DNA of 10,539 nucleotides from UHGV virus genome UHGV-0159509; one strand, written 5' to 3'. The translations under genes and the position numbers were made by a program. Origin of the DNA: a virus. The notes beneath the pieces were generated by a model. The model was given only the letters and a program-made list of their open reading frames with translations. It was not told the DNA's origin and made no database searches. Every line of letters starts with the position of its first letter. Position 1 is the first letter of the stretch. Positions 2,996-5,689 of this stretch are shown piece by piece.

Positions 2996-3143
2996 TGTTC
3001 CAGACCAACTACAGGATTACAACAAAATCTGGTTGCAACACGGTGCATGTGTCGTAAGCAGTCAGTAAATGTCAAAAACGAACAGGCAGGACGCCCACGA
3101 AGTAGCCGCCTGGGGCATATGAAGTCCAGGATGATTCGTTAGC

Positions 3144-3170
3144 AACAAAAAAGCGCCCTACAGGACGCTT
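3144..3170 (-). terminator. Candidate intrinsic terminator for the minus-strand 144-aa gene
   Basis: Hairpin AGCGCC-CTACA-GGaCGCT (3152-3169, one bulge). On the minus strand it is followed directly by TTTTTTGTTG (complement of 3141-3150). Confidence 0.45.
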
Positions 3171-3184
3171 AGCTCTTTAACAAT
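3152..3184 (+). promoter_or_regulatory. Antiterminator-like site: hairpin followed by rrn-type boxA (GCTCTTTAACAAT)
   Basis: 3172-3184 GCTCTTTAACAAT matches the E. coli rrn boxA core as I recall it (TGCTCTTTAACAA). It is preceded by the 3152-3169 hairpin in the boxB-then-boxA order seen in rrn leaders, and lies between the putative PL and the first plus-strand ORF. Confidence 0.45.
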
Positions 3185-3228
3185 CTGGTCCCCATCAACA
3201 AGTAACTGATAACTTGAGGAGATGTGAA

Positions 3229-3435
3229 ATGCACAAAACAGAACCCAAAATCGTCGCGCCTGGCTACACAGATGAGGAAATTTATGAGTGGATGACAAAG
3301 AAGCTGGCAGCTATAAACCAGCTTCGTGAAGTGCTGTCTTATCGACAGGAAACAATAGACTCCTTAAAAAAACTGGATCAGGAAATCACGGTTTTATCAC
3401 AGGATGTTACTTTAGATATTGTGCAGACAAATTAG
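3229..3435 (+). CDS. Hypothetical small protein (68 aa, predicted helical/coiled-coil)
   Basis: ATG at 3229 with SD GAGGA (3216-3220, 8-nt spacer). AT-rich codon usage. The 3' end overlaps the convergent 144-aa gene by 29 nt. No recognisable family. Confidence 0.5.
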   Translation: MHKTEPKIVAPGYTDEEIYEWMTKKLAAINQLREVLSYRQETIDSLKKLDQEITVLSQDVTLDIVQTN

Positions 3436-3841
3436 GATCCCATTCATTTTCGTCAAAATCATCAAAGTGATGAATTTGTGATCTCCAGTCTCGATAATCT
3501 AAAAATTTCTGGGCGGTTACGCTTATTTTATCAAGTGTGAGTTCATCCTGAATTGAAAGAAGAAGTTCATCAAATTTCATCTCATTAATCTGTTTTGGCA
3601 TCCAGTGATGCTTCATCAGAATAAGGTGAACCAGAGCCTTTTTCCCATTCAACTGATTATAGGGAGTGCCGAATTTCTTCCGGTGCTCATGTAAGACAAG
3701 GTCCAAAAGAGTAAGTAATGTTGCCCTTGATTCAACTTTGCTTATTTCGACTGATGACACTACCCCACTGATTTCAATGCCCCGATACTTTCCAACATTT
3801 TCACAGTGGGATTTGTACAGCGTATAGATATTACCGGACAT
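3407..3841 (-). CDS. Hypothetical protein (144 aa), AT-rich accessory gene in the immunity region
   Basis: ATG at 3841-3839 with SD AAGGAAAAG upstream on the minus strand. A long ORF in AT-rich DNA, where stop codons are frequent. No transmembrane stretch and no recognisable domain. Opposite in orientation to the flanking early-left genes. Confidence 0.65.
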   Translation of the reverse strand: MSGNIYTLYKSHCENVGKYRGIEISGVVSSVEISKVESRATLLTLLDLVLHEHRKKFGTPYNQLNGKKALVHLILMKHHWMPKQINEMKFDELLLSIQDELTLDKISVTAQKFLDYRDWRSQIHHFDDFDENEWDPNLSAQYLK

Positions 3842-3856
3842 TTCTTTTCCTTTTGC

Positions 3857-3908
3857 GTTGTTGGGGATAACCAGATTAACCGAATCCTTGTTGTTGGGGA
3901 ATAACCAG
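3857..3908. repeat. Two direct repeats GTTGTTGGGGA(A)TAACCAG upstream of the 144-aa gene
   Basis: R1 at 3857-3874 (18 nt) and R2 at 3890-3908 (19 nt, one extra A), 33-bp period, 16 nt from the start codon of the minus-strand gene. Confidence 0.6.
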
Positions 3909-4127
3909 GTCCACCTCGCCTGATGTGGCTAAAAGCAGGCACATAACAGCTAAGTATTTTCAACCAGAGAGAATCCTTAGCGTTGTGGTGAATGCGGCTC
4001 AGCGCACGCGGGTTAAGGTTGAGGCTGACAGTCGACCTTCTGTGGATACCCACCCGCCTGGTGTGCAACCTTCGCCAGGCACCGGGAGGCACCCGGCACC
4101 ACAACTTTATGCTGTGTGTAGTCCTGG

Positions 4128-4172
4128 CGGTACCAGTTTGTACCCTTGCTTCCGGCTGGTACCGTCCTTTTT
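4128..4172 (+). terminator. Terminator-like hairpin inside the structured island
   Basis: 9-bp perfect stem CGGTACCAG/CTGGTACCG (4128-4136 with 4156-4164), 19-nt loop, followed by TCC then TTTTT (4168-4172). Confidence 0.45.
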
Positions 4173-4261
4173 ACAAAACAGAGAAGAGCATCACCGGACG
4201 ACGGGCTCATAACCCAATCCATCCGGGCGGCTGCCACCGCAGGTGTTCTTCTCTGTTTTGT
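4173..4261. repeat. Long inverted repeat (18-bp stem, 53-nt spacer) just upstream of the first early-left gene
   Basis: 4173-4190 ACAAAACAGAGAAGAGCA pairs with 4244-4261 TGTTCTTCTCTGTTTTGT: 17 Watson-Crick pairs plus one G-U in RNA. The GC-rich interior (4191-4243) has further CCGG/CCGGG pairing potential. Confidence 0.6.
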
Positions 4262-4309
4262 GGAGAAACCAACCGACCTTGCAGGGTCGATATGATGAGG
4301 AGCAGCAAA

Positions 4310-4672
4310 ATGGCTAGCGAACGCAGTACTGATGTGCAGGCATTTATCGGGGAGCTGGACGGCGGCGTATTTGAAACCAAAATCGGCGCAGTTCTCAGTG
4401 AAGTCGCTTCCGGTGTGATGAACACGAAAACCAAAGGTAAGGTCTCACTCAACCTGGAAATCGAACCATTTGATGAGAACCGTGTGAAAATCAAACACAA
4501 ACTCTCATATGTTCGCCCGACTAACCGCGGGAAAATTTCCGAAGAAGACACCACCGAAACGCCGATGTATGTCAATCGCGGTGGTCGCCTGACTATTCTG
4601 CAGGAAGACCAGGGACAATTACTGACTCTTGCCGGTGAACCTGACGGAAAACTCCGCGCAGCAGGTCATTAA
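4310..4672 (+). CDS. Hypothetical prophage early protein (120 aa; YfdP-like by size and position)
   Basis: ATG at 4310 with SD GAGGAG (8-nt spacer). The upstream in-frame extension to 3992 is GC-rich nonsense. Size and position upstream of the YfdQ-like gene match my memory of CPS-53 yfdP; unverified. Confidence 0.75.
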   Translation: MASERSTDVQAFIGELDGGVFETKIGAVLSEVASGVMNTKTKGKVSLNLEIEPFDENRVKIKHKLSYVRPTNRGKISEEDTTETPMYVNRGGRLTILQEDQGQLLTLAGEPDGKLRAAGH

Positions 4673-4737: not shown

Positions 4738-5562
4738 ATGTCTCAGAACTTAGACGCAACCGCAATTAATCAAATCCATGCCCTTATTTCTGCTCAGGGT
4801 GTTAATGAAATTATCAGTAAGATTGGTGCCGATGCTGTGGCATTGCCTGAGAATTTCCGCATTCATGATCTGGAAAAATTTAATTTAAATCGCTTCCGTT
4901 TCCGTGGTGCGCTTTCCACTGCCAGCATCGATGACTTTACCCGTTATTCTAAAGATCTTGCAGATGAAGGCACCCGCTGCTTTATCGATGCTGATAATAT
5001 GCGTGCCGTCAGTGTGCTTAACCTGGGTACTATTGATGAACCAGGTCACGCAGATAACACCGCCACTCTCAAACTGAAAAAGACAGCACCGTTCTCTGCT
5101 CTGTTGTCTGTTAACGGCGAGCGTAACTCCCAGAAGTCACTGGCAGAATGGATTGAAGACTGGGCCGACTACCTTGTGGGCTTTGATGCTAATGGTGACG
5201 CCATTCAGGCAACAAAAGCGGCTGCGGCAGTCCGTAAAATCACGATTGAAGCAAACCAGACCGCTGATTTTGAAGATAATGACTTCAGCGGCAAACGCTC
5301 CCTGATGGAGTCTGTCGAAGCGAAGACCAAAGACATTATGCCAGTGGCATTTGAATTTAAATGCGTTCCGTTTGAAGGTCTGAAAGAACGTCCGTTTAAA
5401 TTACGCCTCAGCATTATCACTGGCGATCGTCCTGTACTGGTTCTGCGCATTATTCAGCTGGAAGCGGTGCAGGAAGAAATGGCTAACGAATTTCGTGATC
5501 TGCTTGTTGAGAAATTCAAAGACAGCAAAGTAGAAACCTTTATTGGTACTTTCACCGCCTGA
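4738..5562 (+). CDS. yfdQ: YfdQ-like (DUF2303 family) prophage protein
   Basis: 274-aa ORF with ATG at 4738 and SD GTGAGGA. Length and position immediately before an HD-domain YfdR-like gene match the CPS-53 yfdQ-yfdR arrangement as I recall it. Family assignment from memory, not a search. Confidence 0.7.
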
Positions 5563-5574
5563 TTTCATTACTGC

Positions 5575-5600
5575 AAATGCCCCTGCGGGGGCATTTATGG
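5575..5600 (+). terminator. Intergenic hairpin (possible attenuator/weak terminator) between yfdQ-like and yfdR-like genes
   Basis: Perfect 9-bp stem AAATGCCCC/GGGGCATTT with TGCG loop (5575-5596), followed by AUGG rather than a U-run, so a weak terminator at best. Confidence 0.35.
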
Positions 5601-5689
5601 AAACGTAATTAACTCAATAATCACCGGATGGTGAGGGCTTCCTTTTACCAGAATTCAGCGCGGTGCAGCGCATATACGTGGAGAACAAA

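Follow-up and report, generated by a model that had tools for sequence, protein, structure and literature searches.

Introduction

The processing sites of the lambda N leader and of sib, together with the processing of DicF, are the precedents for cleavage by RNase III, an enzyme for which a helix of 20-25 bp is of substrate size. YrlA, tmRNA and mascRNA form another group of processed RNAs, some of which are released by tRNA-processing enzymes. Initiator tRNA is itself a target of cleavage, by a VapC-type nuclease in Shigella and Salmonella. Two reports on T5 present its tRNAs as phage-encoded tRNA-type molecules that answer anticodon nucleases (PMC11555353, PMC10264068). All of these bear on an inverted repeat at positions 4173-4261 of UHGV virus genome UHGV-0159509, located immediately upstream of the first early-left gene of an SfIV/SfV/Kati-type lambdoid phage. 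The whole stretch that was analysed, 10,539 nucleotides read 5' to 3' on one strand, is referred to here as the window, and the 89-nt repeat with its intervening sequence as the element.

The element belongs to a previously undescribed family of phage RNAs, and that this is a conserved structured RNA family is very likely. Taken as a whole, it is best read as a tRNA-derived structured RNA that offers an arm resembling the anticodon arm of initiator tRNA and whose long basal helix would act as an excision stem of the RNase III type; a probability of about 0.4 is assigned to this combined reading.

Structure and covariation of the element

A repeat search of the window delimits two arms of 25 nt each, at 4173-4197 and 4237-4261, with 84% complementarity and a spacer of 39 nt. 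In the RNA, the basal helix joins 4173-4192 to 4242-4261 through 20 contiguous pairs, comprising 18 Watson-Crick pairs and the wobbles G4188.U4246 and U4191.G4243. The initial annotation had reported an 18-bp stem. The repeat itself, described there as standing upstream of the first early-left gene, is real: the 10.5-kb window contains no longer one, and the fold of the 89-nt element (-45.5 kcal/mol) compares with -22.2 +/- 3.2 kcal/mol in 200 shuffled sequences (z -7.3), none of which is as low (0/200). In the minimum-energy fold, GGAGA (4262-4266) is additionally paired with the five U of an upstream terminator, which brings the helix to 25 pairs. With 20 contiguous pairs, or 25 when the U-run/GGAGA pairs are included, the helix attains the approximately two turns of double-stranded RNA typical of an RNase III substrate, in keeping with the earlier description of a strongly folded, long duplex of RNase III-substrate size in the early-left leader. 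The repeat was also correctly said not to be a simple terminator, as it is followed by GGAGAAAC and not by a U-run; a scan of the + strand for intrinsic terminators found nothing at the repeat itself, which does not fit the definition of such a terminator.

The 47 nt that separate the strands 4173-4193 and 4241-4261 form two hairpins, so that the element is a three-way junction and not a simple hairpin. On the + strand, its parts follow one another without interruption. The 5' strand of the basal helix occupies 4173-4193 (ACAAAACAGAGAAGAGCATCA) and its 3' strand 4241-4261 (AGGTGTTCTTCTCTGTTTTGT), with an A4193.A4241 mismatch at the junction, where the contiguous pairs end. Arm 1 (4194-4226), which may be regarded as an extended mimic of an anticodon arm, consists of a 7-bp outer helix (CCGGACG/CATCCGG), an internal loop and an inner stem of GGG (4203-4205) and CCC (4213-4215), which closes the 7-nt loop CTCATAA (4206-4212) with CAT at 4208-4210. 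Arm 2 (4227-4240) is a short hairpin of GCGG, the loop CTGCCA and CCGC, at the place equivalent to that of a T-arm. Beyond the basal helix lies a conserved single-stranded linker (4262-4273, GGAGAAACCAAC), followed by a small hairpin at 4274-4289 (CGACCU, loop UGCA, GGGUCG; -8.5 kcal/mol, z -2.5). This smaller hairpin had been placed directly at the Shine-Dalgarno sequence of the downstream gene; it exists, but it ends 7 nt before the Shine-Dalgarno sequence GAGGAG (4297-4302) that precedes the start codon at 4310. Relatives carry a hairpin of other sequence at the same place, for example GGCGG-TGGCA-GCCGCC.

Covariation was analysed in 50 non-redundant sequences of the architecture found in the window (class A below; alignment A1). 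The structure just described is paired in 93.2% of cells, compared with 87.9% in shuffled alignments (0/500 reach the observed value), and in 10 of its 34 pairs both partners have changed. A covariation score of 0.184 was obtained; shuffles gave 0.096 (0/500 reaching the observed score), and sliding the partners relative to each other gave no more than 0.063. The long helix is 94.7% paired, with six pairs changed on both sides: one position is G-C in 29 sequences and C-G in 21, and three others are A-U in some relatives and C-G or G-C in others, and a U.G pair is fixed at one helix position in 44/50 sequences. The outer helix of arm 1 covaries as well, arm 2 varies in both sequence and length (approximately 11-45 nt) with its pairing kept, and the GGAGAA of the linker is present in 50/50 relatives.

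The RNA was assigned to the + strand because the neighbouring genes lie on that strand, a second architecture of the family lies on the tRNA strand with NCCA, the identity with tRNA-fMet is in the sense orientation and the pairing of the U-run with GGAGA exists on the + strand only. A strand call from wobble pairs was dropped, the difference being too small.

Resemblance to initiator tRNA and signs of a tRNA origin

Fourteen nucleotides of arm 1 (CGGGCTCATAACCC) are identical to the E. coli metZ initiator tRNA, the sequence of which was read directly. Over the whole anticodon arm, metZ (UCGGGCUCAUAACCCGA) and the element (ACGGGCUCAUAACCCAA) agree at 15 of 17 positions, and the identical stretch covers the three G-C pairs that mark initiator tRNA together with the CAU anticodon. 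Positions 4203-4215 of the window (GGGCTCATAACCC) thus combine three G-C pairs with an adjoining 7-nt loop, CUCAUAA, that contains CAU, as in an initiator anticodon arm. Outside arm 1, the element shows no resemblance to tRNA-fMet.

A canonical tRNA gene was rejected, as both ARAGORN and the Rfam tRNA model gave negative results with every form of the element. ARAGORN found no tRNA in the window and none in the element or in its tRNA-cluster form, relaxed and mitochondrial modes included, and the Rfam tRNA model RF00005 had no match to the element at E values up to 10. The window lacks a 7-bp acceptor stem with discriminator and CCA, its closing helix being 20 bp long and followed by GGAGAAAC. 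Likewise, the closing stem passes into arm 1 without an intervening helix that could stand for a D-arm, and arm 2 has the loop CUGCCA, which is variable in relatives, in place of that of a T-arm. The predicted fold has tRNA topology minus the D-arm: a closing helix, an anticodon arm and a hairpin just before the 3' strand of the closing helix.

Features of tRNA structure recur in leaders of this type. In Hafnia phage yong2, the stretch from PL, the early-left promoter, to yfdP contains a long hairpin whose arms (CACAACAGGAAGAGCAU...AUGUUCUUCCUGUUGUG) are of a similar kind but whose top is unrelated, fused to a genuine tRNA-Gly(CCC) at the same leader place as the element; the record carries no annotation of this tRNA. 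Flotzy and yong2 both contain long hairpins with the same arms and unrelated tops. The acceptor stem of the yong2 tRNA-Gly, UGUGGUG/CACCACA, equals the closing helix (3982-3990 x 4097-4105) of the STnc100-like RNA that precedes the element in the window, and in this RNA a T-arm-like hairpin stands directly before CACCACA. These features of the leader neighbourhood, along with the T-loop hairpins described next, support a tRNA origin of the element, and the STnc100/PasD family may be tRNA-derived too.

The yong2 tRNA-Gly(CCC) lies at 2370-2443, between the long hairpin and the yfdP homologue; it is called by ARAGORN, scores 51 bits in Rfam and carries G at position 33 of its anticodon loop. The PL leaders of phiNP (2740-2758 and 2790-2808) and Kp4866-6 (2703-2721 and 2760-2778) contain, upstream of the STnc100-like RNA, hairpins with canonical T-loops (GGTTCGATTCC, GTTCGATTCGGAC) that look like isolated T-arm mimics or tRNA remnants.

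Architectures, neighbouring genes and distribution

The junction occurs in three architectures. In class A, the type present in the window, the long helix is followed by GGAGAA, the small hairpin and the first early-left gene; among 232 occurrences of this class, 207 have a T-run immediately 5' of the element, and 34-56 nt, including the conserved linker and the small hairpin, separate the element from the start codon of the first gene. Class B is found in the tRNA clusters that Klebsiella-type phages carry between Q and the lysis genes. The 6-bp helix GGCCUG/CAGGCC, followed by NCCA, here closes the same arm 1 together with an arm 2 that covaries, and the element starts 6 nt past the CCA of a tRNA on the same strand. 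Class C, represented by Pantoea PA-1 and L151, has a closing helix whose 3' strand continues into the GUUGUGGUGAAU box of an STnc100-like RNA. One phage (L100) has a class A copy as well as a class B copy. The combination of one junction with differing closing helices suggests an RNA that is excised and has its own function. The part of the locus under strongest conservation is the apical arm at 4194-4226 and not the stem.

The gene 3' of class A elements is YfdP-like in approximately three quarters of cases and otherwise RdgC-like, an HD-phosphohydrolase gene or one of several others, and the mid-operon yfdP homologue of ArgO145 is preceded by no such element. The variable first gene and the element-free mid-operon yfdP together tie the element to the head of the operon and not to yfdP; it is no device of the gene at 4310. 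Kissing of the apical loop with the start codon was also dropped, as complementarity past AUG is not conserved.

When 4100-4330 was compared with phage genomes by BLAST, near-identical copies appeared in SfII, SfIV, SfV, mEp460, cdtI, Stx2c phages and some Stx2a phages. In Klebsiella phages and those of the Salmonella ST64B type, the alignment covered 4162-4273 only, at 84-86% identity, and in the most distant matches only about 4179-4229 of the 231-nt query remained. This ranking, which is independent of any chosen pattern, shows arm 1 to be the most conserved piece of the sequence. Scans with the exact core yielded more than 240 IMG/VR loci, and when a single genome of each species was scanned, the core appeared in seven enterobacterial representatives and, as chance look-alikes, in two actinobacterial metagenome-assembled genomes (MAGs). 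The 20-nt core is identical in elements from Escherichia, Enterobacter, Leclercia, Raoultella, Pseudocitrobacter, Pantoea and Klebsiella, and the element is also carried by Salmonella, Klebsiella, Citrobacter and Pantoea phages. A scan of metagenomes with a YfdP alignment returned near-identical E. coli copies only and added no diversity.

A 108-nt query was found in 2492 of 5426 complete E. coli genomes (46%), at 3321 places, none of which is annotated as RNA; genomes have a median of one copy and a maximum of five. A repeat of the MITE/REP type was rejected, since genomes have roughly one copy each, the phage and IMG/VR loci examined fall into a small, recurring set of phage contexts and no flanking duplication is seen. 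HK022 has no copy of the element. E. coli K-12 is without it because of a deletion in CPS-53, and K-12 data sets are consequently uninformative on the element. This deletion (L139 7247-7604) joins the iteron region to the yfdP ribosome-binding site, removing PL, the leader RNAs and the hairpin.

No Rfam family matches the element at its gathering score or at E values up to 10. A full-text literature search for the core sequence on both strands found no paper, and searches for a link to tRNA mimics or prophages yielded general reviews only. Some records cover the element with an over-long protein call, and RNA annotation is absent from the records examined.

The early-left leader of the window

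The window follows the lambdoid order. A cro-like gene on the - strand (1839-2099) and a cI-like repressor gene on the + strand (2197-2889) are followed by the operator/promoter region at about 2930-2995, from which PL is directed rightward. Next come a conserved leader on the + strand (3078-3140, CGAACAGGCAGGACGCCCACGAAGTAGCCGCC...CCAGGATGATTCG), which is a put-like candidate, a variable insert (3150-3910) with a 144-aa gene on the opposite strand (3407-3841), and an STnc100/PasD-like small RNA (sRNA) gene on the + strand (3952-4174). The last was recognised by Rfam RF02076 over the full length of the model, with 43.1 bits and E values of 1e-7 to 4e-8; this sole match falls short of the gathering score (47) and stops at the start of the inverted repeat. 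The intrinsic terminator of this sRNA (4126-4172, + strand) has a stem of 4126-4138/4154-4166, then C and UUUUU at 4168-4172; at -20.5 kcal/mol and z -4.4, it agrees with the definition of an intrinsic terminator. The inverted repeat begins at the base right after the U-run, with zero spacer, and homology with mEp460 and Stx2c phages begins at 4125. A scan for sigma-70-like promoters detected no site near the element, so its RNA should come from upstream read-through.

Past the small hairpin, the order is the yfdP-like gene (4310-4672, + strand), which is the first early-left gene and not part of the RNA, then yfdQ and further early-left genes. Position 4310 corresponds to the start of the curated K-12 yfdP. 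An open reading frame (ORF) of 226 aa at 3992-4672 (+ strand), named SfIVp34 in SfIV, and similar calls of a hypothetical protein span the sRNA, the terminator and the hairpin. By comparison with curated K-12 yfdP, the true start of this ORF is most likely at 4310. A coding reading of the ORFs 3992-4672, 4146-4295 and 4207-4575 was dropped, being opposed by the compensatory pairing pattern and the curated K-12 start.

Transcription of a relative has been recorded in the ST64B prophage of Salmonella D23580, in which the coding sequence STMMW_20251 is an over-long call covering the element (about 2,099,561-2,099,649 in D23580). In transcripts per million (TPM), this call stands at 5-6 times the level of the gene after it, and its level increases upon peroxide or NO shock, conditions that induce the prophage. 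The data establish transcription of the + strand, at a resolution too low for small species. A named non-coding RNA, STnc1310, lies farther upstream of the ST64B element.

The leader at 3078-3140 is conserved in lambdoid phages of Escherichia, Salmonella, Klebsiella, Yersinia, Pantoea and Pectobacterium, lies immediately 3' of PL in ST64B, phiNP and Flotzy, and is similar at its two ends to the putL region of HK022 (CGAACNGGC...CAGGAUGA); it is a candidate put-type antiterminator RNA. Phages related to this group are reported to be without an N homologue and are suspected of put-type antitermination (PMC12315714). The inverted repeat itself was rejected as an HK022-type put RNA, since it lies approximately 1.2 kb from PL and HK022 has nothing similar to 4121-4310.

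Several other features of the window were recorded. The insert at 3150-3910 looks like a moron: the product of its 144-aa gene has no Pfam match, terminator-like sites are present at 3325-3300 and 3170-3151, a possible 68-aa ORF lies on the + strand at 3229-3435, and SfV and Flotzy have different or no sequence in this region. On the + strand, GCTCTTTAACAA at 3173-3184, just 3' of a hairpin with a better minus-strand fold, matches the boxA consensus of rrn and nut sites. An inverted repeat at 5562-5609 lies 3' of yfdQ, and phages of the L005 type join the linker of the element straight to it, without yfdP-yfdQ; small intergenic hairpins of this sort may mark points of module exchange. A cluster of inverted and direct repeats of the TTTTGACGGGTCAGA type at 545-646, probably the iterons of a replication origin, has the same sequence in the yfdO-yfdP gap of K-12 CPS-53.

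Proposed mechanism and alternative explanations

According to the proposed mechanism, the 89-nt RNA would be made on the + strand as part of the PL leader. The put-like leader downstream of the promoter would allow transcripts from PL to read through the sRNA terminator at 4126-4172, and the read-through RNA would fold into the helix of 20-25 bp. Cleavage of this helix by RNase III would part the upstream sRNA from the downstream mRNA and free a stable junction RNA; for such excision, the chances appear evenly balanced. In Klebsiella-type relatives, the junction would instead be freed by tRNA-processing enzymes, as suggested by the acceptor-like stem and NCCA beside tRNA genes, and the long helix of class A would do the job that the acceptor-like stem and the adjoining tRNAs do in class B. 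More speculatively, the freed RNA might act in trans by mimicking the initiator anticodon arm and binding or absorbing a factor that recognises this arm. Such a mimic or decoy role is doubtful as matters stand. In its fullest form, it would be a phage-made decoy of the initiator anticodon arm, cut from the PL leader by RNase III and from the late tRNA cluster by tRNA enzymes, these being the two leaders that the phage transcribes most heavily, that binds or absorbs an arm-reading factor and thereby protects or takes over translation initiation in lytic growth, an extension for which expectations should be lower still. Candidate targets of a decoy include the VapC-type nuclease, MetRS and the ribosomal P site.

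Several observations weigh against the reading as an excised, tRNA-derived RNA. A search of the neighbouring proteins with Pfam found no RNA-related domain and no hint to a partner. Most family members were gathered by exact match to a core of 20-22 nt, and the invariance of the core in the alignment is therefore partly a product of construction. In 37/50 relatives, a central 1x1 mismatch interrupts the long helix and could weaken or redirect RNase III cutting. The loop is CUCAUUA in ST64B and Kp4866-6, and the closing pair is G.U in the tRNA-cluster form; tolerance of such changes is not expected of an exact mimic. Finally, 93.2% of cells are paired on the + strand and 91.1% on the - strand, with similar fold energies, so that pairing hardly separates the strands and the assignment to + rests on context.

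Among the alternatives, the element may be a purely cis-acting site for RNase III processing or stability, which sets the 5' end, stability or translation of the early-left mRNA and in which the apical hairpins only aid folding. This explanation, which is possible but not favoured, draws on the length of the helix (20-25 bp), the constant position 34-56 nt before the start codon of the first gene with conserved linker and small hairpin between, the precedents of the lambda N leader, sib and DicF, and the location right after the sRNA terminator, where a cut would part sRNA from mRNA. It leaves unexplained, however, why the apical arm is the most conserved part, why this arm is identical to part of the initiator-tRNA anticodon arm, and why the junction occurs without a long helix in tRNA clusters and before an sRNA, far from start codons. 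Ancestry alone could account for the anticodon-arm identity if the leader arose from decayed tRNA genes and any stable hairpin was selected as an insulator or boundary. The real tRNA at the same leader position in yong2, the acceptor-like closing helix that the STnc100-like neighbour keeps in a form identical to that of the yong2 tRNA, the T-arm-like hairpins of the phiNP and Kp4866-6 leaders, and the same-armed long hairpins with unrelated tops in yong2 and Flotzy all agree with such a relic. A relic should nevertheless decay, yet the 20-nt core is identical across seven genera while closing helices and arm 2 have been replaced, and the rest of the element is unlike tRNA-fMet; this explanation is judged improbable.

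Two further explanations depart from a + strand RNA altogether. The initial annotation had raised a protein-binding palindrome in DNA, to which a cruciform or a recombination boundary between phage modules may be added. Mosaic joints do adjoin the element, with the mEp460/Stx2c homology beginning at 4125 and downstream genes swapped just 3' of GGAGAAAC(T/C)AA, and both strands fold about equally. The three nested helices, however, keep complementarity and not sequence, through numerous compensatory changes, and arm 2 is hypervariable; in the tRNA-cluster form, an acceptor-like stem and NCCA lie on the tRNA strand; and the U.G at one helix position is fixed in 44/50 sequences, all of which leaves a DNA-level feature very improbable. 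Hardly better placed is the idea of a minus-strand RNA, antisense to the leader and complementary to the initiator anticodon arm, or of an unusual terminator. At -45.4 kcal/mol, the minus-strand fold is as good as that of the plus strand, and on average over the family slightly better, the C.A mismatch of arm 1 becomes U.G on it, and the 3' arm ends in UUUUGU. Against this, no minus-strand gene or promoter-like site lies downstream, the neighbouring genes and the tRNAs of the tRNA clusters are all on the + strand, and, for a terminator, the U-run lies inside the helix with no T-run after it on either strand. A tRNA-derived, excisable RNA with an initiator-like arm is retained as the best overall reading.

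Implications

Nearly half of the complete E. coli genomes carry this RNA, as do many phages of Shigella, Salmonella, Klebsiella and Citrobacter, Stx2a and Stx2c phages among them. Its release as a stable molecule, if it occurs, would make it a new class of tRNA mimic that keeps only the initiator anticodon arm. Should the decoy role prove true, then, together with the adjoining STnc100/PasD RNAs, phage leaders would appear as places where tRNA genes are remodelled into regulatory RNAs. Even the reading as a processing stem alone would explain how the sRNA is separated from the early-left mRNA. The analysis also corrects the start of the yfdP-family gene in many records. The element can be tested in the cultivable phages LLS, Kati and SfIV, and research on tRNA-directed immunity and the counter-measures of phages is currently intense.

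Comparison with described systems

Like the lambda N-leader site, sib and the DicF precursor, the element is an extended, imperfectly paired duplex that lies between functional units of an early transcript subject to antitermination. As in sib, extra pairs form only in the read-through RNA, in this case between the U-run and GGAGA. The element differs from these sites in having no sequence relationship to them and in its conserved apical three-way junction, which is also found where the long duplex is absent; its cleavage, moreover, is a prediction.

STnc100/PasD sRNAs (RF02076; Zhu, Shabalina and Storz, bioRxiv 10.64898/2026.05.13.724894) occur in the same phages and at the same two locations, the PL leader and the region from Q to the lysis genes. 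The STnc100-like RNA of the window is headed by a hairpin with similar arms (ACAUAACAGCUAAG...CUUAGCGUUGUG) followed by GUGAAU, and in Pantoea PA-1 and L151 the junction constitutes the 5' domain of such an RNA. In contrast to these sRNAs, the inverted repeat lies outside the Rfam match (which ends at 4174), lacks a terminator of its own and has no known link to Hfq.

YrlA, tmRNA and mascRNA share with the element a long helix formed by 5' and 3' parts in conjunction with a tRNA-derived module. They keep the acceptor/T-arm half without the anticodon arm, whereas the element keeps the anticodon arm. The E. coli thrS operator offers a precedent for a hairpin that imitates the anticodon arm of one tRNA to bind the partner of that tRNA. 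In contrast to the T5 tRNAs, the element is not a usable tRNA, and relative to both T5 and thrS it stands apart in that no defence aimed at initiator tRNA has been tied to these phages.

In appearance, the element comes nearest to the anticodon arm of the E. coli initiator tRNA (metZ/W/V, metY) and to the long-stem tRNA-like RNAs; in its probable handling, it is nearest to the lambda N-leader and sib sites and the DicF precursor, and its genomic partner is the STnc100/PasD family. The element and the initiator tRNA share the 14 nt CGGGCUCAUAACCC, with three G-C pairs and a 7-nt loop containing U33, CAU and A37-A38, as well as the succession of closing helix, anticodon arm and second hairpin. 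The element departs from initiator tRNA in having A.A and C.A in place of the two outer pairs of the anticodon stem, in an arm that runs into a 7-bp helix, and in the absence of a D-arm, a T-loop motif and, in the window, an acceptor end or CCA. On this comparison, the element falls outside the initiator tRNA, long-stem tRNA-like, lambda processing-site and STnc100/PasD families, and is best read as a tRNA-derived RNA and possible mimic.

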